Shown here piece by piece: positions 3,054 through 31,496 of a stretch of 35,040 bases of DNA. Position 1 is the first letter of the stretch, and each line of letters begins with the position of its first letter. The stretch is taken from the NCBI GenBank assembly GCA_027068385.1, contig JAMOTR010000038.1, positions 1 through 35,040 on the forward strand, in the 5' to 3' direction. A program made the position numbers and the translations under genes. A model generated the notes under the pieces. It ran no database searches. It was not told where the DNA came from and saw only the letters and a list, made by a program, of their open reading frames with translations. The stretch comes from Candidatus Heimdallarchaeota archaeon. GTDB taxonomy: Archaea > Asgardarchaeota > Njordarchaeia > Njordarchaeales > JAMOTR01.

Positions 3054-4586
3054 ATGATTAGGAAGGAACTTACTCGCGATCGGAGCGGAAGGCCTATCGT
3101 AGGGTGCGAGAGCGGTAAGGGAGAGGTAAGGATATTCCTAGGAGCAGGAGCTCATGGGGACGAACCAGCGGGAGTTTTAGCGGCCTTAAGGCTAGTGTCC
3201 CGCTTTAAAGATCCGGACGATTTTCGCTTTAGGCGCGTACCGATTCGCGACCCTGCCGGACACGTGGGATTCCTTACCATATTAAGCGAACTCACCGGTG
3301 AAAAGCCTCCGGAGAAATATGAGGAGCTAAGGGAGTTCATCAAAAAACACGGGCGCGAGATATATGACGACGGTATTCTCTTACTCGCGGATTACGATAA
3401 AGTGATCATAGCCTTCGCCCCTCCCGAGGACGATAAGGGTGAGGATGCGATCAACGACCGCATAGCTACGGCTATGAGCGAGAGTTCTACCGTATATGAG
3501 GAGCTCTTAGGGAGGCATATATTCATGCCCGCTAATCAACCGAAGAGCGAGGGAGTGGGACTATACGGTAGAGGGTTCACGAGCTACGTATCGAAAAGCG
3601 GACGCTTGGGAAATTATAACCGTTTCTTCGGTTCTCCGGAGGCCCCTCCTGAGGTAAAGGCCGTACAAGAGTTCCTCGACGAGTTTAAGCCTCATTATAC
3701 GATAGATATGCACGAAGGGTACGACGATTGCTTCTACGTCGTGCTCGATGAGCTTAGGGACGGAATAGATTACCTACTAGCGAGGCCTAAGGTTACCTCT
3801 TTAAGGATATGTTCGAAGGAGGAGCTCGAGAGGACGCATAACGCGGACGCCCCTTGGGACGGTGTGATCGTATATAAGATACCAGATAGTCTAGCGGGAT
3901 ACGCCACGAGATACGGACACGCGATCACGACGGAGACCGGCTTAAAAGCTCCGCTACAGAAGAGGATTACCGCTCATATGCAGGCGTTCTTCAACCTCTT
4001 AGAGGTGATCAAGATAGAGGAGAGGGTGAAGACGGTCGAATGTATGGTAAAGAAGGCCATGAGCGAGCGGCCGGACGATCACGGGTGGAGTCACGTCAAG
4101 CGCGTGAAGACGCTCTCCATGCGGACTTCTAAACGCCTAGGGGCGGACGCCTTCGTCGTATATTTAGCCGCATTACTACACGACATAGCATCGGAGATAG
4201 ATCGTGAGAGGCACGCGCTTATAGGGGCCAAGATCGCTAAAAAGATCTTAGGAGAAGTGGGGCTAGAGGAATATGCGGAGCGCGTCGCGAAGGTAATAGA
4301 GGAACACTCGCGGGGAGAAGAGCCGAGTAATAAGGAATCGCTAGCGTTGAAGATCGCTGATCTCTTGGACGCTACCGGGTACATAGGTGCATATAGGGCG
4401 ATAGCTTATGGGGCTAGAAAGGGAAGGGACCTTAACGGCTTCATAAAACACGCGAACGAGAAGCTCTTGAAGATATACGAGCGGATTTCTAAGCATACTC
4501 GCGATGAAGAAATATTAGCGGAGGCAAAGAGGCGCCATGAGGAGCTCTTAAGATTCGTAGAAGTGATTAGGGAGGAAGGTTTTTGA
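3054..4586 (+). CDS. fusion protein: zinc carboxypeptidase / AstE-AspA-like N-domain plus C-terminal HD phosphohydrolase domain
   Basis: The N-terminal part has GAGAHGDEPAG and IDMHEGYDD (His-Glu...His zinc pattern of M14/succinylglutamate-desuccinylase-like proteins). The C-terminal part has HGWSHVKRV...LAALLHDIASE...IEEHS (HD domain). It is one uninterrupted frame with no in-frame CGA, so the fusion looks real. Confidence 0.55.
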   Translation: MIRKELTRDRSGRPIVGCESGKGEVRIFLGAGAHGDEPAGVLAALRLVSRFKDPDDFRFRRVPIRDPAGHVGFLTILSELTGEKPPEKYEELREFIKKHGREIYDDGILLLADYDKVIIAFAPPEDDKGEDAINDRIATAMSESSTVYEELLGRHIFMPANQPKSEGVGLYGRGFTSYVSKSGRLGNYNRFFGSPEAPPEVKAVQEFLDEFKPHYTIDMHEGYDDCFYVVLDELRDGIDYLLARPKVTSLRICSKEELERTHNADAPWDGVIVYKIPDSLAGYATRYGHAITTETGLKAPLQKRITAHMQAFFNLLEVIKIEERVKTVECMVKKAMSERPDDHGWSHVKRVKTLSMRTSKRLGADAFVVYLAALLHDIASEIDRERHALIGAKIAKKILGEVGLEEYAERVAKVIEEHSRGEEPSNKESLALKIADLLDATGYIGAYRAIAYGARKGRDLNGFIKHANEKLLKIYERISKHTRDEEILAEAKRRHEELLRFVEVIREEGF

Positions 4587-14480: not shown

Positions 14481-15377
14481 TCAAATCCCTAAGATGAGGT
14501 CCTCAAACACGGCTATAGCGGTCCGCATCCTATTTTCGGCCTGCTCGAAGACGACGCTGTGCTCTTCGTCCTCGAACACGTCGTCCGTTACTTCCTCTCC
14601 TACGTGTCTCGGTAAGCAGTGCATGAAGATATAATCCTCGTGAGCGTGCTTAACGAGCTCAGCGTTTACCTGATACGGCCTCAAGAGTTGTTTCTTCTTT
14701 TCCGCCTCGGCTTCCTGTCCCATCGATACCCGAACGTCCGTGTATATCACGTGCGCCCCCTTCACGGCTTCCACGGGGTCCTCGGTGATGTGTAAGCGAT
14801 CGCCGCATACCTCAAGGACGAGCTTATCCGGTTGTAGCTCCTTAGGGGTAGCGATCCGCATCTCCGCTCCTAGCTTACACGCGCCTATAGCTAAGGAGTT
14901 AGCTACGTTCGAGGACCCGTCTCCTACGAACGCTATCTTTAGTCCGCTGATGCGGTTAAAGTGCTCATATATGGTCATAAGATCGGCTAGAGCCTGAAGC
15001 GGATGGAAGCGATCGCTTAAGGCGTTGATCACGGGCACATCGCTCCGCTCAGCGAGCTCCTCTAGATCCTTATGAGAGTATACTCTAGCCGTTATTCCGG
15101 AGACGTAACGCGATAGGACGCGGGCGAAGTCCTTGATGGGCTCTCCGCGGGATAGCTGGGTCGTCCTAGCCTCTAGGTATATGGGATGTAGCCCTAAGTA
15201 AGCGGCGGCCGCCTCTAGGGATACGCGAGTACGCGTAGAGGGCTTCATGAATATTAGCGCTACGGACTCGCCCGTAGGAGTCGAAGCGGGCGTGGGGTTA
15301 TACTTATGATCTAAGGCGTTATTAATCCGTCTCCGAATGTCTCCCTCAGAATAATCCGCGAGAGTTAAGAGGTGCAT
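14481..15377 (-). CDS. argF: ornithine carbamoyltransferase
   Basis: Motifs STRTR, SRGEP, HPLQ, DV-CGG-VSMGQE (the DVWVSMG motif distinguishes OTC from ATCase) and HCLP. The likely start is ATG 15377 (MHLLTLADY); the track start at 15392 is a GTG. Confidence 0.9.
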   Translation of the reverse strand: MHLLTLADYSEGDIRRRINNALDHKYNPTPASTPTGESVALIFMKPSTRTRVSLEAAAAYLGLHPIYLEARTTQLSRGEPIKDFARVLSRYVSGITARVYSHKDLEELAERSDVPVINALSDRFHPLQALADLMTIYEHFNRISGLKIAFVGDGSSNVANSLAIGACKLGAEMRIATPKELQPDKLVLEVCGDRLHITEDPVEAVKGAHVIYTDVRVSMGQEAEAEKKKQLLRPYQVNAELVKHAHEDYIFMHCLPRHVGEEVTDDVFEDEEHSVVFEQAENRMRTAIAVFEDLILGI

Positions 15378-15405
15378 ATTTTCGTTCCTCACGTGGGTTT
15401 ATGAA

Positions 15406-15959: not shown

Positions 15960-16982
15960 ATGGAGTCGCCTAGACCTTTAGATACCGTAAGGTATATAGA
16001 AGAGCAGAAGGCGGTGAAGCTCATAAATCAGCGTAAGCTCCCGGAGACTTTTGAATACTTTACCGCTAAGACCGTAGAGGACGTTGCTTATGCTATAAAG
16101 AACATGATCGTACGCGGTGCTCCGGCGATAGGTATCACGGCCGCTTACGGCATGAAACTATTCGCGGACACATACAAAGGAAAGGACTTCGAACACGACG
16201 CTAGGAGAGCTCTGGAATTATTGAAGCGTACTAGACCCACGGGTAAGAACCTCTTCCGGGCGCTGAACCACATAGAGAAGGCGATAGATAAGGGGCCCGA
16301 GGCCGTAATAAAAGCCGCTGATGAGGTGGTGGAGAAGGAAAAGGAATATGAGAGGCGCATAGCAGATCGGAGCCTAAAGTTCGTGGAGATGATCTCGGAG
16401 AAGCTAGGAAAGAAGGAAATCACGTTCCACACGCATTGTAACGCCGGTCGTTTAGCCACTTACGGTCTCTTCGGTACGGCTACAGCCCCGATATATGTAG
16501 CACATCGGAACGGATATCGCGTACGGGCGATCGTGGATGAAACCAGACCTGTGCTTCAAGGCGCCCGTCTCACGGCCCGGGAACTTAGCGTTGCGGGAAT
16601 AGATACCACCGTGATACCCGACACCGCTATAGGGTTAGCGTTGATGAAGGGCTTAAGCGACGTGGTCGTCGTAGGGGCCGATCGCGTGTGTAAGGATCGG
16701 TCCGTGACGAACAAGATAGGAACGTATGTGCTCGCCACGCTCGCTAAGAGGCATAACGTCCCGTTCGTCGTAGTAGCCCCTACGTCCACGTTCGACGAGT
16801 GTACCTTCGACAATCCACCGCCCATCGAGGAACGCGACGAGCGCGAGGTGCGTTACATACGTGACGTGAAGATCGTTCCGGACGGTGCGAGAGTGTTGAA
16901 CTACGCGTTCGACATCACCCCCGCTGAACTAATAAACTACGTGATAAGCGAAAAAGGGATTCACGAGGTGAACCCTATATGA
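15960..16982 (+). CDS. aIF-2B-like family isomerase (methylthioribose-1-phosphate or ribose-1,5-bisphosphate isomerase)
   Basis: Motifs VRGAPAIG, RPTGKNLF-CGG-AL (RPTAVNLFWAL), HCNAG, DETRPVLQGARLTA-CGG-EL (RLTAWEL) and NKIGTY. I cannot distinguish M1P from R15P specificity by eye. Confidence 0.8.
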   Translation: MESPRPLDTVRYIEEQKAVKLINQRKLPETFEYFTAKTVEDVAYAIKNMIVRGAPAIGITAAYGMKLFADTYKGKDFEHDARRALELLKRTRPTGKNLFRALNHIEKAIDKGPEAVIKAADEVVEKEKEYERRIADRSLKFVEMISEKLGKKEITFHTHCNAGRLATYGLFGTATAPIYVAHRNGYRVRAIVDETRPVLQGARLTARELSVAGIDTTVIPDTAIGLALMKGLSDVVVVGADRVCKDRSVTNKIGTYVLATLAKRHNVPFVVVAPTSTFDECTFDNPPPIEERDEREVRYIRDVKIVPDGARVLNYAFDITPAELINYVISEKGIHEVNPI

Positions 16983-17287
16983 TTATCACGATCATCACCA
17001 CGGTCTCATCCAAGAACGAAGCCGAAAGGATTGCGGAGATATTGTTAAAAGATCGCTTAGCCGCGTGCGTTACGATAATACCGGCTACCTCTATGTACCG
17101 GCGGAAGGGAAAGATCGCGAAGGAGGACGAGTGCGTGATCCTAATAAAGACCTCTAAGAGGCGTTATACGGAGCTCATGAAGAGGCTCAAGGAGATACAT
17201 CCATACGAGCTTCCCGAGATCCTCATACTTAAGCCCGACGCGCTAGAGGAGTACATTAAGCGGGTAGAAGAAAGCACCTCGGAGCGA
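16979..17287 (+). CDS. cutA: divalent-cation tolerance protein CutA
   Basis: SMY-CGG-CGG-KGKI matches the CutA S.YWW.G motif. Also HPYELPEI, and YIK-CGG-V matching YL.W. Ending at CGA 17285-17287 gives 102 aa, the normal CutA length. The standard-code frame would run to 17482 straight through the antisense tRNA-Ser gene. Confidence 0.85.
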
Positions 17288-19294: not shown

Positions 19295-20728
19295 TTACCG
19301 ACCATCCTCTTTAGATACAGGCTTGCGGAACCGAGGACAACAGCGTACCTTCCTATACTTGGGGTGGCACTTCTTCAGCGTCTTATCGCTAATCCTTCCT
19401 AAGCGGGTCTCCGGGAGTATAGCTAATAGCTCCCGACCTAGCTCTATAGACTCCACTATGTCGCGCTCCGTCTCTCCCTGATTGATGAACCTCTGCTCGA
19501 ATTCATCCGCGAAGCGCAAGAACGCCTTATCTTCCTCGCTTAACGCCTCTTCTCCTACTACCGCCACGAGGTCGCGTAGATCGACGCCCTCGGCATAAGC
19601 CGCATATAATTGATCGGCTAGCTCCTTGTGACACGGTGTCGTCTTACCCTTACCGATAGCCTCGCGCATCAGACGGGAGAGGCTCGGTAGAGGATCTATA
19701 GGCGGGTATATTCCCTTGCGGTGAAGAGCTCTAGATAGGTATATCTGTCCCTCCGTAATGTATCCCGTTAAGTCGGGCACCGGGTGCGTCACGTCGTCGT
19801 TCGGCATCGTTAGTATCGGCATGAGCGTGATGCTCCCGTTCTTTCCCCTCACGATCCCACAACGCTCGTATATGGAGGCTAGGTCCGAGTATAGGTAAGC
19901 CGGATAGCCGCGCCTTCCGGGTATCTCGTTCCTCGCGGCCGAGATCTCACGCAACGCCTCAGCGTAGTTGGTCATGTCCGTGAGTATTACTAACACGTGC
20001 CTCTCCGTCTCGAACGCTAGATACTCGGCCACAGTTAACGCTAGACGAGGCGTGATTATACGCTCTATAGCCGGGTCGTTAGCGAGGTTCACGAACATCA
20101 CGGTCCTCTCCATCGCCCCGCTTTCCTCGAGGCTCTTACGGAAGAAGTTATACTCCTCGGCCGTGATTCCCATGGCCGCGAACACCACCGCGAACTCCTC
20201 CTCCGTTCCCACCACTTTAGCCTGCCTCGCGATCTGTACGGCTAAGCGGTTATGAGGTAATCCGGATCCGGAGAATAGCGGAAGCTTCTGGCCGCGCACG
20301 AGGGTGAGCATCACGTCTATAGTCGATATACCCGTCTGAATGAAGTCGTGAGGATACTTACGCATCACGGGATTTATAGGGGAGCCGTTCACGTCAAGCC
20401 GCGCCTCGGCTACGGGCTTCTTATATCCGTCTATGGGCTCACCGCGGCCGTTAAATATTCTTCCTAGCATGTCCTCGGAGACCCCTATGCGTAGAGTCTC
20501 GCCAAGCATGCGGAACGAGGAATTAATATCTATCCCGAGCGTTTGCTCGAATACCTGTACCACCACGGCGCTCTCGGAGGCCTCTATGACTTGTCCGAGA
20601 CGCTCGCCTTCCGGAGTTAATATGCGCACGAGTTCCCCGAACATCGGCTTGAGTCCCTTAGGTTCTACGATAACTAGGGGGCCCGTGATCTGTTGGAGGC
20701 CCTTATACGTGATCGCCGGTCTATCCAT
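19295..20728 (-). CDS. atpB: A/V-type ATP synthase subunit B
   Basis: I set the start at ATG 20728 ([22 protein letters not shown]); an in-frame CGA (20735-20737) lies 2 codons upstream. Motifs: [36 protein letters not shown]. It has an unusual Cys/Lys-rich C-terminal tail. Confidence 0.9.
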
Positions 20729-20806
20729 AAAGAATCGATAGCGCGGGAATAAAGAAGGAGTTCGGTAATTGAAAAGATAGAACTTCGATCGGTATTTAGT
20801 CGGAGA

Positions 20807-23800
20807 ATGAGTAAAAGTCCGAGCATAAATGCCACAAACAATATTTTCGAGGCCTTGTACACGGCTCTGTTTCACGACGTCGAGAAGGTGTTCAGAATAA
20901 GGAAGTACGGAGGGGTCGTTCCCACGAAAGATAAACCTAGCTTGGGAGTCGGAACGGAGGAATCAAAATTCATTAATGAAATGGGGAAGAACGCTCACCA
21001 AGTTCTTAATAGCGTTTATGGTGGACCGGGTGGGCGCATCGATACTAATGACGTACATAAAGCGTTGTCGAGCAACCCCGATCTCTTAAGGATCGTCTTC
21101 TATAGGACGAATCTAAACCCGGAAATAGGAGAGTTGAAGCCCATTTACGACGGAAGCGCCGCGGGGAGCACGAGGGGTGGACAAATTCATATCTACCATA
21201 ACAACAACCCGAGCTCCGGTAGATACGCCCAGTTAGAGATACTATCGCTTTACTCTTTAATAAACGGGACGAAGGACCTCGATCCGAGGAAGCTCGTGCA
21301 CATATATTATACCCTTAAGAAGTACGGAAATAATAAGAGGCTCTTATCGGCCGAGGTGGAGCTCGTAGGGAATCCGACCGTGGCGTATAACAACATCTAC
21401 GTCAAGGGATCCCAGGAGTACGAGGACCTCCTTAAGTATAACCCTAACGTACGGGCGAATAAGGACGTTTATCCGTTGGGACCGTTCGTGGAGCTATACA
21501 CGTACCTATACGTCTCGGACGCGTTGAGGGCCAAGGATAACGACCTAATATCGTTAAAGCCCGTGCGGTCTTACGGCTCGATATTCAAAGCGGAGGACGT
21601 ATCCGAACCTTTCACTCCCCTATCGATCCATACGACGCTCGGCGCCGCGATTCAGGCGGCCTCGATGTACTATTCGATCGACGCGAGTAACGCGTTCAAG
21701 AATTCGAAAGTCGCCTTATATCACGTCGTGTTCTCGGGTTATAAGGATCTCATATCTCGCTTGCCGTACACGTTTCACCAAGCCGAAAGTATGTATTTGA
21801 GATTCACGCGCGCGATAAACTTGATACTTTACGGCCTTCTACGCGCCCTGAGCTTAGCGATCCGGCTTAATTATCTCAACGCAGCGAACGTGAGCGATCC
21901 GGAGTTCGAATACGTCCACGATTACGTAGCCCTAATACGCTCGCCCGCGGACATGTTCATCCCGATGTTCGTAAGTAACTCAAGGGGGACGTATGTGGAC
22001 GAAAAGGAGGTGAAGAAGGTCGTGGATACGACACTCATAGACCTTAGTAAGAGGCTCGAGGAGGTTCAGATAGAGCTCGAGGCCGCGGGTGAGAGGAGGA
22101 GGACGTCGCTTTCCGTGGTCCCCAAATACATATCCCTCGTGGGGAACGTCGAGATCACGAACGCGGCCTCGTTTAGGATCAAAACTAGGGGTAAAAGTAA
22201 TTTTGTGGAGCGGAACTTGGGTGGGTTCTCGTATACCATGGTTAACCCCACGGAATACGATGAGATGCTCTTAAGGGCGCGCGTGAGGATACCTACGGTC
22301 ATAAACGCTGGGGCGATAAAGAGTAGCACGGAGTTCTTCGTCCTCAAATTATATCGCGATAAGAGCGACGTCTATCCCGCGATATACGCGTACGAGAAAG
22401 GAAAAGTCTCACAGATCACGAAGAAGTTCGACGACGGAAAGGATATCTCGGAGGTAGAAAAGTACGAACTAGTCGATATAGTAGTGATCTTATACGCTCC
22501 CGAGGCGGAGGGACCCGAGGGAATAGATTACCTAGGGATCTTCGAGAAGCGGCTAGAAGCCGCGGACAAGCTGAGGAACGACGTACAAAGGATGACGAAA
22601 AACGTCGAGCTCAAGAAGAAGAAGGAGGCCGTCGGGATCGTGGATCTATTCGTGATCCCCTCTTATAGGCCAGTAGACCTAGAACAAAAGTATAAGAGGG
22701 ACGATAAGGAGCCTTACGTACTACATCGGAGGTTCGCGTTTCCCGAGCCCGCATATGGGGTGATGCGCTTGAAGAAGTTCGATAAGATATACGTGAGCGG
22801 AATCCCTAAGGACTTCTTTAAGAATGTGAGCCCAGTCCATTACTTAGCGTTCTTAGAGGAGGCCTTAATGTATCGGGGACTAACTATTCTACCTTCCACG
22901 CTCGCCCCCTTGAACCCTACGATCATATACGTGGCTAGGGACGAAAGCTACTATCTAACGGATACAGCGGGCGACTTCTCTAGGGTAATCTCTCTCTTAA
23001 AATCGCGGGACGAGGCGCGTTATCCCGTAGAAGTAATCCTAGAGGCTACGAGCGTGAAGAAACCGATATACTACGTGAAAGCTAATACCGACGGGTTCAT
23101 AGAGCTGAGGCCCGTGAGGGCAGGGAACGACTACTTAATACCCCCGAGGGCCGTCGCGTTCTCGATGCCCATAGGACTAAAGGAGCTCGCTGAAGCCTTA
23201 ACCCGGGGGAGGAAGATCCTAGAGGAATCAAATAAGGGGAAGGTTAATCTGGGCGCTATAATAAGATACCTAAAACCTTACTCTAAGCGGTTCATCCTAG
23301 ACTTCTTCGAGAGAATTAAGGAGGAGACGAAGAAGGAGCCGGAGAACAGGAATTATACGGAGGCTATAAAAGGTGAGGAAAAGTTCGACGAGTTCCTGAA
23401 CGAGAGCCTATACATACTCACGCGCCTCGATAACTTAAGTAACGTGGGAATAGACTCTCAGAAGCTCTACGAGATCGTCGGAAAACCACTCATTAACTTC
23501 GCGTACGCATTAACGTCGAAGGACGGTGACGACCTCGCGTTCTTAAATATATTAAAGGATTTGAGCGGGGAAAAGGGTAAAAGAAAGATAGAGATTATGC
23601 TCGACATCATCGCGTCGTTCTTACTAGAGATCGAGAAATACGAGGGAGGCTCGATAAAGCTCGACGTATTAAAGTATCTCAAGAGCGCCACGCTCATAGC
23701 GAGGGACACTAAAAACTTCGACGAAGCGTTGAATTACGCGATAAAAAGGATCGAGCCGTACTATAAGCGCGATTATAAGGGACTAAAGAGGGAGCTTATG

Positions 23801-23956
23801 CGCCTTCAGAGGATACTTCTACTTACTTTAGCGATCAAGATGATGGAGGAACACGACAAGAACTTCGCGCCCGATCCCAACGGAGATAAAGACTTCGTGA
23901 AGAGGTTCCTAACACTCGCTATAGCGTCTAGACTCGCGGATGTATCTAGGAGCTAA
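20807..23956 (+). CDS. Cas10-like large subunit candidate (N-terminal HD motif, degenerate cyclase motif, helical C-terminal region)
   Basis: A 1049-aa uninterrupted ORF with 10 CGG, no TGG and no CGA. The N-terminal [15 protein letters not shown] (HD at 20873-20878) resembles the Cas10 LLHDIGK HD motif. [11 protein letters not shown] (22634-22660) sits where the GGDDLF palm motif would be, but is degenerate. The last ~250 aa are predicted helical. It lies directly upstream of Cas7- and Cas5-like genes, with a 30-nt spacer. The family assignment rests on context and short motifs only. Confidence 0.5.
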
Positions 23957-23986
23957 AGTTCTTTTTCTTTATTCATAGTTCTTCGT

Positions 23987-24814
23987 ATGTCACAACGTAG
24001 CGAAGCTCAAGAGGTTTTTGTAAAGATCAAAGGGGCGTACGTCCTTCATTTAAAACTTGAAGTCGAGAACATGCTCATTGGGGGCGTAGCTAGGTTCAAT
24101 AGATACGTACATCTCGAGACGATAAAGGACGCGAGGGGTAATCCCTATATACCCGCTTCTTCCGTTAAAGGGCGCCTTAGGATGCTTATAGAGACCTCTT
24201 ATGGACTCGCCGGAATAACCTCGCCCGACGCCTTGACGAAGAGCGCGGACGAGAGGTATACTTGGAGCAAACTCAAGGAGAGGATACCTAAGGATAAGAG
24301 GAAGGACGCATTTTGCCTCTTAGCGCTCTTCGGAGGATTAAACGACGTGGGTCCTACGAGACTAATATTTCACGATCTACGCTTCGAAGGCACCCCGGTG
24401 ACGGAGATAAAGCCGGAGAACATGGTCGATAGGTTCCGCGGAACGGCCGAGAACCCAAGGCTCGTGGAGCGTGTGAGCGGGGTGGCTAGGGGTAGGCTCT
24501 TAATATTAGACGTGGAGCCCGAAACGGAAGTAGAGGATAAAGAACTACGGGAGTCCGTCTGTCCGCACGGAATAAGGATGCTCAAAAACGGCTTTAAGCT
24601 CCTTAAGCTCTTAGGTCTCGGGCGCGGTGTGAGCAGGGGATACGGTAAGATCAAGAATATAATAATAGAGAAGATCGAGAGGATCGACGCGGGAGGGTCC
24701 GTGAGCGTAATATACGAGTATAAAGGAAGCGAAGATAACATAGAGGAGGCGTTCGACGAATTAATACAAAACATGTGTCCGGATAGGGCTCAGGAGAAGA
24801 GGGGTGACGCGTGA
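23987..24814 (+). CDS. cas7: Cas7-family RAMP protein (Csm3/Cmr4-like)
   Basis: Motifs: GNPYIPASSVKGRLRMLIE (the PyIPGSS.KG.lR RAMP signature), LALFGG, TRLIFHDLRF, EIKPENMVDRFRGTAENPRLVERV (idR.tg.a...l...E) and the C-terminal glycine-rich loop LGLGRGVSRGYGKI. Confidence 0.75.
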   Translation: MSQRSEAQEVFVKIKGAYVLHLKLEVENMLIGGVARFNRYVHLETIKDARGNPYIPASSVKGRLRMLIETSYGLAGITSPDALTKSADERYTWSKLKERIPKDKRKDAFCLLALFGGLNDVGPTRLIFHDLRFEGTPVTEIKPENMVDRFRGTAENPRLVERVSGVARGRLLILDVEPETEVEDKELRESVCPHGIRMLKNGFKLLKLLGLGRGVSRGYGKIKNIIIEKIERIDAGGSVSVIYEYKGSEDNIEEAFDELIQNMCPDRAQEKRGDA

Positions 24815-25680
24815 TGAATAAATCGAAAACTATAAAGGCGTTTATTTTGGAACCCTTAGGCCCTTTCTACGGATACATCCCCACGAGTTTAACGCTCTAT
24901 AGAGCGTTGTTAGCGCTAGAAAAGAGCGGCCTAATAGACCTTAAGGACGGCTTCTCCATCGCTGGAATCTTCGCATACGACCCTAAGAACGATCTCTTGT
25001 ACTTACCGTCGGATTCCCGGATTCTAGCGCTCAAAGACGCGACCATCGATAATTATAAGATAAACGTCCCGGAGAGCCTTTACGTTCCGTTCGAGTCCTC
25101 CATGAAGTCTTACTTTGCGCTCGTGAAGGGGAAGAACGAGTATGAGGTAAGGGTCGAATACCCCTTCTTACTCACACTTTCCGCTAGGATAAACGTCTCT
25201 CGCTCCGCGTTTACGTCGTATGGAACCGGGCGCGTAGCATATAATCGCATGTATCTATCGAGGTTTAAACGGGCGATCTTAACGGACCTAGATAAGAACA
25301 TCATAAGGCTCTTAGGCGAGTTTGGGGTCGGTAACTATAAGTCCATAGGGGGCGGGGCGTTCGAGATAATAGGCGAACGCGAGGTGGAGATAAAGCCCAT
25401 TAATGTACAAAAGAAGCTCGAAGGTTACGACCTCGAGTACTCGCCCCTCGACTTCCCCCTAAATTACGGGATCGGGAACGTGCGGGAGATGCGTACGAGG
25501 ATATTCGACGGATCCTCTAGGATTAAGATAGTGAGGTACTTAGCGGGGGGATTAATAAAGAAAGACGCCCTCAAAGACGACCGGCCTCAGGCGTTTCGGG
25601 GGAGTACGTTCCCGCGTATAAAAGGAAACGATTGTCCACGCGCCCGCTTAATAAGGGGATTCCCATTTCTAAAGAAACGA
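24814..25680 (+). CDS. cas5: Cas5-family RAMP protein (Csm4/Cmr3-like)
   Basis: ATG 24814 overlaps the cas7 TGA (TGATG). The N-terminal AFILEPLGPFYGYIPTSLTLYRALL resembles Csm4 (l.p.sp.h.G ... sDTLfsAl). Also FSIAGIFAY, LLYLPSD and the glycine-rich loop FGVGNYKSIGGGAFEI. In-frame CGA at 25678-25680 ends it 45 nt before the convergent kae1 stop; the standard frame runs to 25737 and would overlap kae1. Confidence 0.6.
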
Positions 25681-25725
25681 TCAGCACGCGCACCTATCAT
25701 CATTTTTCAGACCCGTGGAGGCTCA

Positions 25726-26733
25726 TCATCTCGGTAGAATTTCTGGTGGCGGTAGTTCAAATTCTTCCATCCTCCGTTTAGGAATCACGTAACTTTCCTC
25801 GATCTTTAGAGGCTCCATTCCCGCCTTATACATCTCTAACGCTACATACGCGATCATCGCACCGTTATCCACGGCAAGCTCCGGGGATACGATACCGTGC
25901 TTTATGTTCCGATCCTCCGCCATCTCCTCGAACATTTTCCTTAAGCGCTTGTTCCTCGCAACTCCGCCCACAAGTAGAGCCTCTTTTTTACCCGTGAACC
26001 CTAGCGCCCTCTCTAATACTTCTATTACCATAGCGAAGGCCGTCTCTTGTAGCGAATAAGCGACGTCCTCGATCGGAACTCCGGACTCTAATAATTCTAT
26101 AGCCGCCTTTAGGAGACCGCTAAAGCTTAAGTTCATGCCCTTCACGACATAAGGAAGATCGTAGTAACGCGACCCCTTCTGAGCGAAGCGTTCTATATGA
26201 GGTCCTCCTGGGAACGGTATCGTGATCCCTAAGATCCTAGCAGCCTCGCGCGCGAAGGTATCTAATAGATTCCCCAACCCTATATCAAGCGTCTCTCCGT
26301 ACACTACGTATCTTCTTCCCTCGCGACCGACCACGGCCGTGTTTCCCCCGGAGAGATACAACGCTATAGGCTCCTTAAATCCGTGCTCCCGACGCCCTAT
26401 CTCGATGTGAGCTACAGCGTGATTTACCCCGTATAGAGGCACTTCTAACACGGAGGCTAAGAATCTAGCGGCCGTAGCTACGGTCCTTAAACAAGGCCCT
26501 AGACCCGGCCCACGGGAGAAACCTATTGCTACTACGTCCGTTCCCAACGTATCGAACGCCTTCTCTACGAGCTTCGGTAACCTTTGGGCTATAAACTGAG
26601 CGGACTCGCGCGGATGTATACCTCCGGAGGGGGAAGTATATTGTTCCCTCAAGTTTAAGAGTAGCTCACCGTCTAGGCTAAAAGCCCCTACTCCGGCCGT
26701 ATGAGCGGTACCCTCAAGACCTAAAACGTACAT
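25726..26733 (-). CDS. kae1: tRNA N6-adenosine threonylcarbamoyltransferase Kae1
   Basis: ATG 26733 (MYVLGLEGTAHTAGVGAF...), HPRESAQF, YGVNHAVAHIE, LYLSGGNT, LVGGVARN and DNGAMIA. At 335 aa it is the normal Kae1 length. aaggagagg lies upstream of the ATG. Confidence 0.9.
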   Translation of the reverse strand: MYVLGLEGTAHTAGVGAFSLDGELLLNLREQYTSPSGGIHPRESAQFIAQRLPKLVEKAFDTLGTDVVAIGFSRGPGLGPCLRTVATAARFLASVLEVPLYGVNHAVAHIEIGRREHGFKEPIALYLSGGNTAVVGREGRRYVVYGETLDIGLGNLLDTFAREAARILGITIPFPGGPHIERFAQKGSRYYDLPYVVKGMNLSFSGLLKAAIELLESGVPIEDVAYSLQETAFAMVIEVLERALGFTGKKEALLVGGVARNKRLRKMFEEMAEDRNIKHGIVSPELAVDNGAMIAYVALEMYKAGMEPLKIEESYVIPKRRMEEFELPPPEILPR

Positions 26734-26742
26734 TTCAAAAAT

Positions 26743-27531
26743 TCGTTCTCCTCTCCTTCTTAGCTTCTCGTATATCTTCGGGCTCCGTACTATCATAAGT
26801 ATATTAAAGAACATGGCCTCGATCGCGAACGCGAAGGACCTCCGATCGAAGAACCCTCCGAAGGTCCGGAGGACGAAGGAGGGTATGTAGAACACGAGGG
26901 CGAGGGCGGATAAGATCCTGTAGAGCGTGACGTATCCCGCGGATCCCAGAACCCCTATAACGAACACGATCACGCCCATGAGCTGTAGGGAAGAGGCATA
27001 TGGGCCCGAGACGTGAAGCGATATCGTCGCTCCGGAGATGAAGTATCCTACGCTCGAGAGGGCTCCGAGAATTATCGGTACATAATAAGATAATAGAGCT
27101 AAGAGCGCTAATAACGTCCCTAAGAGCCGAAGACCTACCCCTACGCCTAAGACCATCTGAAGGGACTCGGTGAACCTGCCCTGGGCGATCGCTTCCTTCA
27201 ACGTAGGACCTAAGGATATCACGCGTAAGGCTAACACCGACGCGCTAATGCCGGCCCCGACCGAGATCATGAACCTAGCGGGAAACACAGCGTTCGTGAG
27301 GTATATAAGGCCTCCGATAAGGACGGAGAAGCCTCCCAAGTATGCGATGAAGTACAAGACGTTGAGTATAGTCGTCCCTTGTTCCTCCGTAATATACCCG
27401 TACGTCTTCAAATAAGCGACTATCTGAGCGTATATACCCGGATCCCCTACAGCGTTTACGAGCACCAAGATTATCCCTCCCAGGATGGCGAAGATTGGTT
27501 GAAGGATGTATTTGGGCCTTTTCACGATCAT
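26743..27531 (-). CDS. hypothetical polytopic membrane protein
   Basis: 262 codons, about 7 hydrophobic helices. It ends at in-frame CGA 26743-26745, 9 nt before the kae1 ATG. The standard-code track fuses it to Kae1 as a 601-aa ORF. Confidence 0.5.
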
Positions 27532-27562
27532 AATAATAAAAAGATGATTAAATACGATCGCG

Positions 27563-28888
27563 TCGGATATAACCCAAGCGCGTGAGTTCCCTTTCTAGCT
27601 CGCTTAACGATATCTCGGATTCTAATCCCCGTTTCTCTAGAGCGACGCGAAACTCCTCGCTTTCCCTCGCGATTTCCTCTTTCGTATGTCCATCGAGAGC
27701 CCCTTTAAACGCGTCTAGCATAGCCTTCACGCCCGCTTTGATGCCCTTTGGATGTCCCACTATCGCGCGACCGACGAGGTATATGACGTCCCTAAACCCC
27801 ATGTTTATCGCGTCATAAGCTAGTGAGGGAGTTATTCCGGATCCTATTAGCGGTATCGTCTTTCCTATAGGACCTTCGCCCGCTAAAGCGTTATAAGCGC
27901 TCCGAACTGTGTATAAGTCCTTCTTATGAGAACCTACGGGAGGAGGTATCTGTGCTATGTCTGCTCCTGAGATACGTTCGAACAGCGCTAACACGGCCGC
28001 GTTAAACCCTCTCGGACTATCTATTAGCGCGGAGAATCCGGAATTCCTAGTGTATACTGGGACGTCGAACTCCCTTACGACTTCGTTTATCTCGTCGTAA
28101 CTCGCGTACATCGAGGGAATAAGCACGCCTAACCTCTCCACGTCTAATTTTTCTAAGGCCTTAAGAACCGTGCTTAACGTCCTCTTTGGGTCCCTAGATC
28201 CTATATTTAAGAAATAGAAGACGTACTCGTTCTTCGACTTTTTAATTTCGTTGAGGATCCTCTTAGCTCTGTCTATCCTCTTCGAGTACTTCGGATCTAG
28301 GAGCTTCTCGTCGTCCGCTATCATATGAACGCCCGCTTCGGCTACGTCGCGCGCTAGCTTAGCGTATTGATCCGAGGTGAGACCTAGAGAGGGCTTCATG
28401 ATGAACCCTAAATAGGGCCCTGGGCCCCGGATCTTTCTAAGATAATCGGACCTCAAAGGACCCCCGAACCTCTTTAGTATATTCTCCGGAAACTCTATCG
28501 ATGTGATCTTTATGCTACGCACGGACGCGGAATCGAGCAGATCACCCGCGATATATACGAGTATATCGTCGAACGAAATATCTTTGGAGAGATGTACGGT
28601 AGGGTATTCTATTTCTACGATGCCTATATCGACGATGCTCTCGCCTCCATTATGATCGCTCACCACCTTCGATCCTATTGGATCGACGTGCCTCACTACG
28701 GCGCCGTATTTCTTTATGTCCTCCTTGTCGATGCCCAGAACCGAAAATATAACGTCCGTCACTCCGGCTATGCTCAAACTCTGTTCGTCCGCGAGGTGAC
28801 TAGCTATCTCATATAACTTCCCTCTATTATCGGGAGTCGTTTCGACCAAATAGCGCACTCTTATCGTACCGTTTTTCTTAATGGGCAC
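27563..28888 (-). CDS. RuBisCO large-subunit-like protein (divergent, form IV-like; non-carboxylating)
   Basis: It aligns by eye to archaeal form III RbcL. FPENILKRFGGP, YLGFIMKPSLGLTS (the KPK.G motif with the second Lys changed to Ser) and GVHMIADDEKL (DF.KDDE with the carbamylated Lys changed to Ala, GCG at 28316-28318). Also LIGSGITP, VGHPKGIKAGVKA and VALEK-CGG-G (ALEKWG). The start is tentatively GTG 28888, 9 nt after the phosphomutase CGA. The end is at CGA 27563-27565, 4 codons before TAA. Confidence 0.7.
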
Positions 28889-28897
28889 GAAAAAACA

Positions 28898-30244
28898 TCG
28901 TTTAGCTTCTTTTATTATTTCCTCGAGCTTTCTCTTAAACTCCTCCGCGCGCTCCTTAGAGCGAGCTTGAATGTATATGCGAAGCTTCCCTAATTCCGTT
29001 CCCGACTTCCTTACTAGTATCCGCTCACCGTCTCCCAACACTTTTATTCCGTCTATGAGGTCCTTCTTCCGCTTGTATTTGTGGCTCCGCTCCAGTAGTT
29101 GGTGCATGAGGCGCATATATACAATATCTATGCGGCTCGGATCTATGCGGTACGTCCTTCTTATACCGTAATACTTCGGTAACCTAGAAAGACGGTCTTC
29201 GAGACCCTCTTCGACCACCTTCGCGAGTATGCATGCCGAAAGTATACCGTCGTACCGCGCCCCATAAGAGGGTATCATATGTTTCCACGGTTCGGTGGCC
29301 ATGAGGACGTCGTTAATCATAGAGTAGACGATGTCCGGAAGGTAACCGAGCTTGTAGCGGTATACCTTTAGTCCGTATTTCTTAGCTATCTCTTCCGCTA
29401 CGTCTAGAGTATCCACCGAAAGTACCACAACGCGCCTTCCGCGACGCCTTTTAGATACCTCCTCGAGTATTAATGAGGCCGTATAGCTTTGGTCCACGAA
29501 CCTTCCCCTCGGATCTATTAAAGCTAGCCTATCACCATCGCCGTCCAGAGCCATAGCCGGCACGCCCAAACTCCTCGCTATGTTCATAGTATCCTTAAGG
29601 TTCTCCTCGCTAGGTTCGGGCATACGCCCGGGGAAGAATCCGTCCGGTTGGGCGTTCACGTCTATAACCTCGGCCCCTAGTTCCCTCAGAGCCCTCGTAG
29701 CTATCACACCAGCGGCTCCATTAGATCCATCTATAATTACCCTAATCTCCTTCTCCAACGGTTCTACAAATGAGAATAGATGCTCTAGATATTCGTCCAC
29801 GACTTGGTCGGAGATGTCCACATACTTCGGTTCAAGCCTCCGGTCGAACCTCGGTTCAGGCTCCTTCCGATAGTCCTGAAGCATATTTTCTTGTATAGAG
29901 GTAAGCTCGCGCCCGTTCACGAAGATCTTGAACCCGTTATACTCTGGGGGGTTATGGGATGCCGTAACGAGCACCCCTACACCGTTTAACTTCCCAGAAG
30001 CGAAGGCTACTACGGGATAAGGGGCGAGACCGGCATAATATACTTCCGCCCCCATCGCCCCTAAACCGGACATCAACGCACTCGCGAGCACGGGAGACGT
30101 CTTGCGGGAATCTATGCCCACGACTACTTTAGAAGCATTATCGAACGCCTTAGCGATCGTAACGCCCAACTTAAACGCCATATCTGTGGTGATGTTCTTA
30201 CCGAAGATGCCTCTAATGCCCGAAGTACCGAAACGTAGACTCAT
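28898..30244 (-). CDS. alpha-D-phosphohexomutase superfamily enzyme (phosphoglucomutase / phosphomannomutase / possible phosphopentomutase)
   Basis: ATG 30244 (MSLRFGTSGIRG). Motifs: TASHNPPEYNGFK (active-site Ser loop), ALDGDGDRLALID (Mg site) and GTELGKLRIY. Ending at CGA 28898-28900 gives 448 aa, the normal size. The track start at 30358 would overlap the divergent gene. Confidence 0.85.
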
Positions 30245-30296
30245 ATATGGAGTCGTTCGTTGTTTATCTTCAATAACATCTCGATAACAACCCATC

Positions 30297-31496
30297 ATGA
30301 ACGACGAGGTCCTTAAGCCTCTGATGGATTTAGTAGCCTTTAAGACGGTGCGGTACAACGTCGAGGATTACGAAAGGGCGGCTGATTATATCGTAAAACT
30401 CATAGAAAGGGAGATTCCGGAAGCCTCCGTAGAGGTAGTAGAGGGGATCGCTACATACGGTAAAAAGAGGAAGGTTAAGAACATCTTAGCGTACGTAGAT
30501 GCCGGCGCCGATAAGACCGTGGCTCTCGTTTCTCATTACGACGTGGTAGACGCTAAGGGTCCCCGGAGGATAAAAGTGGGAGACTCCGTGATCGAGTTTG
30601 ACCCGTTTAAGCCTACGCTCATAGGCGATCGTCTATACGGCCGCGGCGCTGCTGACGACAAGTCGGCCGTAGTAGCCTCGATATTCGCCACGAAGTACGC
30701 CTTAAACGAACTCTCTAAGAACGTCCTTCTAGTGATAGCCGCGGAAGAGGAGACGGGAGGGGAAGGAGGAATTAAGGCCGTAGCCGATAAAGTAGCGGAA
30801 CTCGCGGATGAGGTAATAGTGATCGACGGGATGTATGGCGTAATAGCTAACGGGGCTTCAGGAGTAGTACACGCGAAGGTTAAGGTATATGGGACACAGG
30901 GACACGCGGGCATGCCTTTCTTATGTAGGAACCCCACGCACGCTCTAATAAGGCTCTTGAACACCGTCCTTAACTACAATATCTTCGGAGCTTATAGCGA
31001 ACTCCCCGTTAGGAGCCACTTTAAGACCATAGCCGATCGCCTCACTATCACGAGGCTATCCGCGGGCTTAGAGTCTTATAACGTAATCTCTAGGGATGCT
31101 GAAGCCGGAATAGACTTCCGTTACGTAACCGAGGAGCCTGAAGCCGCTGAGGATATGCTCAAGCGTATCTTCTATGGAGCGGCCTCATCGTTAGGGCTCT
31201 CTATGGAGGACGTATCCGTAGAGATAATAGGGAATCACCCGAGCCGGTACATACCTCCGAACCATCCGTTCATCACGAGGTTTAAGGAGATAGCCGAGGA
31301 AGTTACGGGAGATAAGCACGTCGTCGGTGTGGAACGGGGAGGTAACGACGGCTTCATATTCGCTAGGAGAGGGATCCCCACGCTTACTTACGGCGCTATG
31401 ACCGAAGACTCGAACATACACGCCCCGCTCGAGAATCTCAGGCTAGACGTGTATGAGAAGCTCATCAAGGTCCTCACAGAGTACCTCAAGAGGTGA
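30297..31496 (+). CDS. M20-family metallopeptidase / deacylase (ArgE/DapE/LysK-like)
   Basis: Motifs SHYDVV, GRGAADDKS and AAEEETGGEGG, which is the typical M20 His/Asp/Glu metal-ligand pattern. 399 aa. I cannot assign substrate specificity. Confidence 0.75.
   Translation: MNDEVLKPLMDLVAFKTVRYNVEDYERAADYIVKLIEREIPEASVEVVEGIATYGKKRKVKNILAYVDAGADKTVALVSHYDVVDAKGPRRIKVGDSVIEFDPFKPTLIGDRLYGRGAADDKSAVVASIFATKYALNELSKNVLLVIAAEEETGGEGGIKAVADKVAELADEVIVIDGMYGVIANGASGVVHAKVKVYGTQGHAGMPFLCRNPTHALIRLLNTVLNYNIFGAYSELPVRSHFKTIADRLTITRLSAGLESYNVISRDAEAGIDFRYVTEEPEAAEDMLKRIFYGAASSLGLSMEDVSVEIIGNHPSRYIPPNHPFITRFKEIAEEVTGDKHVVGVERGGNDGFIFARRGIPTLTYGAMTEDSNIHAPLENLRLDVYEKLIKVLTEYLKR

Follow-up and report, generated by a model that had tools for sequence, protein, structure and literature searches.

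A Csm3-type Cas7, a probable Csm4-type Cas5 and an ORFan large protein encoded together beside kae1 in a Njordarchaeales lineage with an altered genetic code

What kind of system is specified by three genes, two for CRISPR-associated RAMP proteins and one for a large protein of no recognizable family, that lie between housekeeping genes of an archaeon? The locus stands in a 35,040-nt stretch of DNA (the window) of contig JAMOTR010000038.1 from Candidatus Heimdallarchaeota archaeon (assembly GCA_027068385.1, Asgard order Njordarchaeales), and its features are collected in Table 1. An account made from the letters alone (the sequence-only reading) had taken it for an array-less module of a Cas10-like protein, a Cas7 and a Cas5. 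We propose that it is a reduced type III-A (Csm)-derived effector module native to this archaeal lineage, a reading to which we give an even chance. The proposal is carried by the identity of the Cas7, by the operon linkage of the three genes and by the fact that a second species has kept the trio.

The second gene is assigned on profile evidence to the Csm3 family of Cas7 proteins. Its product matches the Pfam RAMPs family (1.7e-14), the PADLOC Csm3 profile over its full length (3.1e-24) and a local Csm3 hidden Markov model (HMM; 1e-30); its best match among the Csm3 chains in the PDB is 9zs2_E (9e-15), and alignment of its profile with five Csm3 proteins by hhalign gives 1e-25. The score against TIGR02582 is 75.9 bits, under the cutoff of 90. 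The best 25 of its 38 PADLOC matches all belong to type III families (Csm3, Cmr6, Cas7_IIId, Csm5 and Cas7_IIIg), with neither Csf2 nor Csf3 among these 25, and Cas7_IIIg scores 6e-4 against 3e-24 for Csm3. The earlier description of this protein as a Csm3/Cmr4-like RAMP is borne out and can be narrowed to Csm3-like (E 3e-24 to 1e-30). Three features set the protein apart from canonical Csm3: its catalytic loop is longer by an insertion of seven residues, a K/E-rich segment is inserted at about residues 75-110, and the C-terminus is extended. The Asp that is catalytic in the canonical IGGxD motif appears not to be conserved: MAFFT places it on A35, followed by the seven-residue insertion; HMMER aligns D33 of St Csm3 to an invariant E44 in the catalytic loop; and a reading anchored on the C-terminal side puts H42 at this position in the window protein and Asp in its orthologue from the second species (L001, below). 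RNA cleavage by this Cas7 is uncertain because the Asp is replaced or displaced by the insertion.

The third gene probably encodes a diverged Csm4-type Cas5. The PADLOC Csm4 profile matches it at the G-rich loop (6.5e-4 in the window, 1.3e-4 in L001, the range over both orthologues being 1.3e-4 to 1.3e-3), and TIGR01903 gives 0.007-0.05, or 13-16 bits against a cutoff of 55; every score lies under the curated cutoffs. With hhalign, P is 1.3e-4 against five Csm4 proteins, compared with 0.2 against Csm3 and 0.02 against Csm5, and the Csm4 HMM ranks the Cas5 ORFs first among all six-frame open reading frames (ORFs) of ~66 kb. Although weak, the signal is specific, and each of two orthologues gives it independently, which bears out the Csm4/Cmr3-like Cas5 proposed earlier. 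We also take the N-terminal IPTSLTLYRALL to fit, by eye, the N-terminal motif of Csm4/Cmr3 proteins.

The three genes are co-directional and tightly coupled, with a 30-nt spacer (23957-23986) between the large gene and cas7 and the junction gcgTGATGaat between cas7 and cas5, in which the TGA of the former and the ATG of the latter overlap by one base. This arrangement had been described correctly from the letters, as had the setting between atpB and kae1 and the quoted motifs, all of which are present in the translations (PYIPASSVKGRLR, DRFRGTAENPRL and LGLGRGVSRGYG in Cas7; SLTLYRALL, LLYLPSD and GNYKSIGGGAFEI in Cas5). The 77-nt divergent region upstream is presumed to hold the promoter of the three-gene operon. 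The five nearest Cas7 relatives looked up outside the family all come from canonical III-A loci of the order cas10-csm2-csm3-csm4-csm5, which also hold Cas6, Cas1/2 and Csm6/Csx1; it follows from this order that the large gene of the window, an ORFan, occupies the cas10(+csm2) slot.

The large protein itself resembled nothing in the collections that were searched. It has the dipeptide H23-D24 near its N-terminus, ten Trp residues (all encoded by CGG), a conserved core at residues 674-830 and neither cysteine nor a GGDD motif; a Cas10 Zn finger is lacking since there is no cysteine. A word-indexed search of 5.8 billion proteins, queried both with the standard-code protein and with a two-sequence profile corrected for Trp, returned only the protein itself, and so did an exhaustive phmmer search of 1.84 billion representatives at E<=1e-3 with the uncorrected (standard-code) translation. 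The whole protein and five segments, in both translations, gave no meaningful match to Pfam, NCBIfam, PADLOC, PHROGs or PDB sequences, and no Lactamase_B or beta-CASP domain appeared in Pfam searches of separate segments even at E<=10. Profile-profile alignment of the whole protein and six segments by hhalign against Cas10, Csm2, Csm3, Csm4 and Csm5 alignments built from five III-A loci stayed at chance level; against five Csm1 proteins the probability was 0.1% (P 0.2-0.6), and the invariant Csm1 residues C397/C400/C412/C415 and GGDD581-584 have no counterpart. AlphaFold2 in single-sequence mode gave unusable models of the full length and of residues 640-1049 (mean predicted local distance difference test 34.8 and 36.6, respectively), in which the C-terminal ~260 residues are all-helical, and the protein may contain a fused, unrecognizable Cas11-like domain.

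Of the N-terminal HD motif named in the sequence-only reading, the dipeptide is real and no HD-domain profile matches it. Several attempts to place Cas10 motifs on the protein were rejected: the context of H23-D24 on the Cas10 motif LLHDIGKF (12 columns, P = 0.18) and an 11-residue stretch on the GGDD hairpin, co-linear with the beta-alpha-beta-beta-alpha-beta pattern (P ~0.6), were not significant, and KANTD as a degenerate GGDD was dropped. The Cas10-like label, based on gene position and the HD dipeptide only, could not be supported: every sequence, profile and profile-profile test was negative and no structure was confident, which leaves the label neither proven nor refuted. At the sequence level the locus lacks the Cas10 signature that defines type III in the strict sense.

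No repeat array, tandem or interspaced, was found in the window, nor in the ~10 kb beyond either of its ends (segments L036 and L039 of the same 206-kb contig), where only housekeeping genes occur. That contig, k141_146051 of ENA ERZ27262635, contains the window save for a few single-base differences. Pfam and PADLOC scans of the ORFs found no gene for Cas1, Cas2, Cas6, Cas11/Csm2 or a CARF protein, and a six-frame scan with local HMMs (Cas1, Cas2, Cas6, Csx1/Csm6, Cas10, Csm2 and Csm5) found only the trio; the Csm2 HMM in particular revealed no separate small-subunit gene, and cas1/2 and CARF/SAVED genes are absent from ~54 kb. The absences listed by the sequence-only reading thus hold at the level of window, ORFs and six-frame translation, and no complete type III locus lies in the ~10 kb on either side of the window. 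A ~105-nt direct repeat at 12109-12348 of L036, ~2 kb past the 3' end of the window, has three copies within a 99-residue ORF; it is not a CRISPR array, because its start-to-start spacings are 24 and 111 nt and two copies overlap. Among the hydrogenase/Mrp-type genes 16,221 bp upstream of the trio lies one for a 510-residue HD-domain protein (Pfam HD, 1.4e-13); this protein matches the HD part of a Cas10 profile weakly in PADLOC (0.0024) and most probably is a hydrolase of the general HD kind.

The trio recurs elsewhere: in a second species (ENA ERZ27262679; locus L001) the same large-Cas7-Cas5 order lies directly beside kae1. Identity between the two species is 88% for Kae1 and 55-85% for other neighbouring genes, and falls to 44-46% for Cas7, 38-44% for Cas5 and 30-33% for the large protein over the C-terminal 377 residues of the orthologue. 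Nonsynonymous divergence (dN) is 0.51-0.71 in the trio against 0.10-0.40 in nine neighbouring genes, making the trio the fastest-evolving gene set of the neighbourhood. Every ORF is intact in both species, and the proportion of nonsynonymous differences (pN) is below that of synonymous ones (pS) in all three genes. Further relatives did not turn up: a Kae1-anchored scan of GTDB species genomes reached at best 49% identity and gave no close relative, a search of JGI metagenome contigs with the Cas5 profile and a DNA pattern of the small RNA described below yielded nothing beyond one 2-kb fragment from the L001 species, and viral contigs gave no match.

Correct translation of these genes depends on the meaning of two codons. 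In 13 housekeeping ORFs, TGG occurs in frame five times in ~6500 codons and CGG at 15.9 per 1000 codons; CGG encodes the universally conserved Trp of ornithine transcarbamoylase (DVWxSMG, codon 221) and a conserved Trp of AtpB (codon 481 of the ORF). When nine housekeeping genes are compared codon by codon, 31 of 33 window CGG codons stand opposite CGG in L001 and the other two opposite Ile codons; none stands opposite AGG, CGC, CGT, AGA or AAG, codons which interchange freely among themselves, and both aligned TGG codons of the window stand opposite CGG. From the codon pairing and the conserved sites it follows that CGG is read as Trp, as had been assumed from the letters. This matches the archaeal reassignment reported for two hydrothermal-vent Njordarchaeales assemblies of ~50% G+C, in which no CGA was seen in conserved domains and the meaning of CGA was left open (bioRxiv 10.64898/2026.04.02.715157). 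In our data CGA behaves as a stop, because in frame it is confined to positions just before a conventional stop, upstream of a true start or exactly at the junctions of ORFs that seem fused in the window and are separate genes in L001 (26743-26745 and 28898-28900 on the minus strand, 17285-17287 and 25678-25680 on the plus strand, and ~20 more; also in L001, L036 and L039). At the membrane protein/Kae1 junction the window reads ...KLRRRGE[CGA] and L001 reads ...KKLRRRR followed by a stop; at the phosphoglucomutase/RuBisCO-like junction ...KEAK[CGA] faces a standard stop in L001; and CutA and Pelota end with CGA just ahead of tRNA genes. These positions constitute direct positional evidence for the codon meaning left open in the preprint. 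The two junctions are read through under the standard code, and the public gene calls for the contig include both artefact fusions (a 601-residue membrane domain plus Kae1, and an 898-936-residue phosphoglucomutase plus RuBisCO-like protein).

The end of cas5 given by the sequence-only reading, 25680, proves exact, being the last base of an in-frame CGA and hence of a stop in this lineage. It is the sole in-frame CGA of the trio. Under the corrected code the large protein has ten Trp (none under the standard code), Cas7 gains one and Cas5 has five, and the Trp codons of the trio number 16 CGG against one TGG. Recent horizontal acquisition is rejected by this usage: Trp is written as CGG, in-frame CGA is avoided and the G+C content of 0.47-0.50 is near the window value, so that the trio is adapted to the altered code of the lineage and was not recently imported. 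We conclude that it is long-resident, vertically inherited and fast-evolving under the constraint of purifying selection. Modelling or expression of the proteins needs CGG as Trp and CGA as stop, since standard annotation mistranslates 16 Trp residues.

For the proposed III-A-derived module, we infer that the three products assemble into a complex in which the ORFan acts as the large subunit, on a guide supplied in trans and with a role in defence. Several copies of the Csm3-like Cas7 would polymerise along the guide RNA, the Csm4-like Cas5 would cap its 5' end (5' handle), and the 1049-residue protein would replace the Cas10 large subunit, its helical C-terminal third perhaps taking the place of the small subunit. 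Position, the context of H23-D24, the conserved core and the helical C-terminus speak for such a role. Cyclic-oligoadenylate (cOA) signalling would be absent, there being no GGDD, Zn finger or CARF/SAVED effector. Guides would derive from an array processed by a Cas6, both encoded at other sites of the genome, on the model put forward for III-G, III-F and III-H. Interference would act by binding or through a nuclease activity of the large protein, whose sole candidate site is the HD dipeptide. Tentatively, and with rather less confidence than we place in the module as such, the 1049-residue protein may be a new, non-Cas10 signature large subunit on a Csm3/Csm4 backbone, or else part of a CRISPR-independent, vertically inherited RAMP ribonucleoprotein.

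Several findings weigh against a III-A-derived defence module. The ~54 kb examined hold neither an array nor cas6 nor any further cas locus; the catalytic Asp of canonical Csm3 appears not to be conserved; defence loci do not usually stay put between housekeeping genes, as this one does in two species; and no tie of the large protein to Cas10 or to any nuclease is detectable by sequence, profile or profile-profile comparison. An alternative is an exapted, CRISPR-independent RAMP complex, in which the Csm3/Csm4 pair and a lineage-specific partner would have been kept for a host function, for example the binding or processing of cellular RNA without CRISPR RNA (crRNA). In its favour, two species with Kae1 88% identical have the trio at one fixed place between atpB and kae1, adaptation genes are missing from ~54 kb along with the array and cas6, the large subunit is unlike any known Cas protein, and the Csm3 catalytic Asp appears not to be conserved. 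Against exaptation, the dN of the trio relative to its neighbours fits conflict genes better than housekeeping genes, and type III variants that have no array and borrow their crRNAs in trans are on record (PMC12669027). Nor was a candidate cellular RNA partner identified, the adjacent C/D box small RNA lying on the kae1 side and being an ordinary methylation guide. We regard exaptation as unlikely.

The sequence-only reading had named III-F and IV-C as the nearest architectures and missed closer ones (PMC12669027): III-H, in which three genes encode Cas10 with an inactive palm, Cas7 and Cas5 and the adaptation module is lacking, and besides it III-G and type VII. Because of these precedents the locus is less unprecedented than was assumed. 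According to Makarova et al. 2025 (PMC12669027), III-H consists of Cas10, Cas7 and Cas5, and its Cas10 has an active HD domain, an inactivated palm and a C-terminal domain resembling Cas11. An extremely diverged III-H (or III-F-like) system would have a true Cas10 here, with an HD nuclease cleaving DNA, inactivated palms and a Cas11-like C-terminal domain. Its gene content agrees with that of the window (one large subunit, one Cas7, one Cas5, with no cas1/2 or CARF/SAVED gene in ~54 kb; PMC12669027), as do the archaeal host, the missing adaptation module and cOA partners, the apparent non-conservation of the Cas7 catalytic Asp, and the lack of a separate Cas11, whose function is assumed for the C-terminal part of the large subunit. 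The dipeptide H23-D24, whose surroundings resemble LLHDIGKF, and the helical C-terminus (of low confidence) point the same way, and the Cas10 of III-I likewise has no detectable sequence similarity and was recognized by structure alone. However, III-H Cas10 loci were collected by a profile search of NR, whereas HMMER with 1.84 billion representatives found no relative of the large protein, which differs from III-H in having no detectable similarity to any Cas10 or other protein; judged indirectly, from that search, it does not appear to be a sequence-level member of III-H Cas10. It also lacks cysteine, GGDD and a recognizable palm, and hhalign put ARDE on GGDD at P ~0.6, that is, at chance. 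The Cas7 groups with III-A Csm3, its nearest relatives, and the window has a conserved housekeeping neighbourhood and no nearby array. A diverged III-H system is a doubtful reading to which we assign a low probability.

Likenesses to the other systems are partial. Csm3 and Csm4 are the nearest kin of the Cas7 and Cas5, whose genes directly follow the large-subunit gene in the III-A order, but Csm2, Csm5, Cas6, Csm6/Csx1, Cas1/2 and the array of III-A are absent here, as are GGDD and the Zn-finger cysteines; the Csm3 catalytic loop is remodelled and the TIGR02582 score is below the equivalog cutoff. With III-G (of Sulfolobales) and III-F the locus shares its reduced, array-less form without adaptation genes or cOA effectors, with crRNAs presumably borrowed in trans and an HD nuclease presumed to be the effector; III-G, however, has Csx26, two Cas7 genes and a recognizable Cas10, and III-F has a separate Cas11 and a recognizable Cas10. 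Type VII (Cas14, Cas7 and Cas5) is likewise an archaeal three-gene class 1 module reduced from type III with a large subunit that is not a canonical Cas10, but Cas14 is a beta-CASP metallo-beta-lactamase nuclease, a domain not detected here, and the type VII Cas5 is near III-D whereas the present one is nearest Csm4. IV-C combines an HD-motif large subunit with Cas7 and Cas5 and is often array-less; type IV, in contrast, uses Csf2/Csf3-type Cas7/Cas5 and a separate Cas11, where the window has Csm3/Csm4-type proteins and no Cas11 gene. In architecture the locus matches III-H and is analogous to type VII, with no membership in III-H, III-G or type VII shown by it. A decaying, non-functional remnant of a once-complete III-A locus, with an unrelated or degenerate large ORF, would explain the loss of Cas6, Csm2, Csm5, Cas1/2 and the array, the very high divergence and the TIGR02582 score under its cutoff, but is very improbable given a 3150-nt ORF and two others intact in two species at saturated synonymous divergence with pN < pS, conserved RAMP motifs and Trp (CGG) codons, and translational coupling kept in both.

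Table 1. Coordinates of the trio and of other features of the window.
Feature	Position	Strand	Remarks
large gene	20807-23956	+	ORF, 3150 nt, 1049 aa; ORFan in cas10 position
cas7	23987-24814	+	ORF, 275 aa; Csm3-family RAMP
cas5	24814-25680	+	289 aa with CGA 25678-25680 as stop; probable diverged Csm4-like RAMP
standard-code cas5 ORF	24811/24814-25737	+	as in ORF list; 19 residues longer than the CGA-ended protein
divergent intergenic region	20730-20806		77 nt, between the atpB start and the large-gene start
atpB	19295-20731	-	A-type ATPase B subunit; left neighbour; PDB 2c61 match, E = 5e-177
atpB, ORF	19295-20875	-	Trp as CGG at codon 481
kae1	25726-26733	-	Kae1/TsaD; right neighbour
C/D box small RNA	25678-25733	-	directly 3' of kae1
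HD-domain protein	3054-4586	+	510 aa
ornithine transcarbamoylase	14481-15392	-	Trp as CGG at codon 221
IF-2B-family protein	15960-16982	+	
RuBisCO large-chain-like protein	27548-28897	-	
phosphoglucomutase/phosphomannomutase	28901-30253	-	
standard-code fusion	25726-27531	-	membrane domain + Kae1, 601 aa
standard-code fusion	27548-30358	-	phosphoglucomutase + RuBisCO-like, 898-936 aa

The true start of atpB was fixed by the PDB alignment. The gene is solitary, with a DUF711 gene downstream, the Cas-like trio upstream and no adjacent atpA or atpD. The C/D box small RNA 3' of kae1 has the boxes C (ATGATGA), D' (CTGA), C' (ATGATGA) and D (CTGA) and two 12-nt guides; its C box includes the TGA stop of kae1, and it matches Rfam snoPyro_CD at 42.9 bits (E = 4e-8), slightly below the gathering score. 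Its DNA is almost unchanged in L001, whereas the flanking cas5 sequence has diverged, and the seemingly conserved 19-residue tail of the standard-code Cas5 ORF is due to the overlap with this RNA. The genes for an IF-2B-family protein, a RuBisCO-like protein and a phosphoglucomutase recall, as we presume, the archaeal salvage of adenosine monophosphate and nucleosides via ribose-1,5-bisphosphate.

Reduced type III derivatives (III-G, III-H, III-I and type VII) show that class 1 effectors can shed parts and swap the large subunit. To these the present locus adds an instance of a Csm3/Csm4 backbone that is kept with a large subunit unrecognizable by sequence. The module holds one fixed place among housekeeping genes in two species of an archaeal lineage from hydrothermal vents that is poorly sampled and has an altered code. 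It is less exceptional than first thought, since type III derivatives with three genes, no array and a dead cyclase have by now been catalogued, and is still notable for its unique large subunit and its fixed core-genome position. Should the large protein turn out to be a new effector, the locus would deserve the rank of a new class 1 subtype or type, in the way that Cas14 defined type VII; should the complex do without CRISPR arrays, it would illustrate the exaptation of RAMP proteins.

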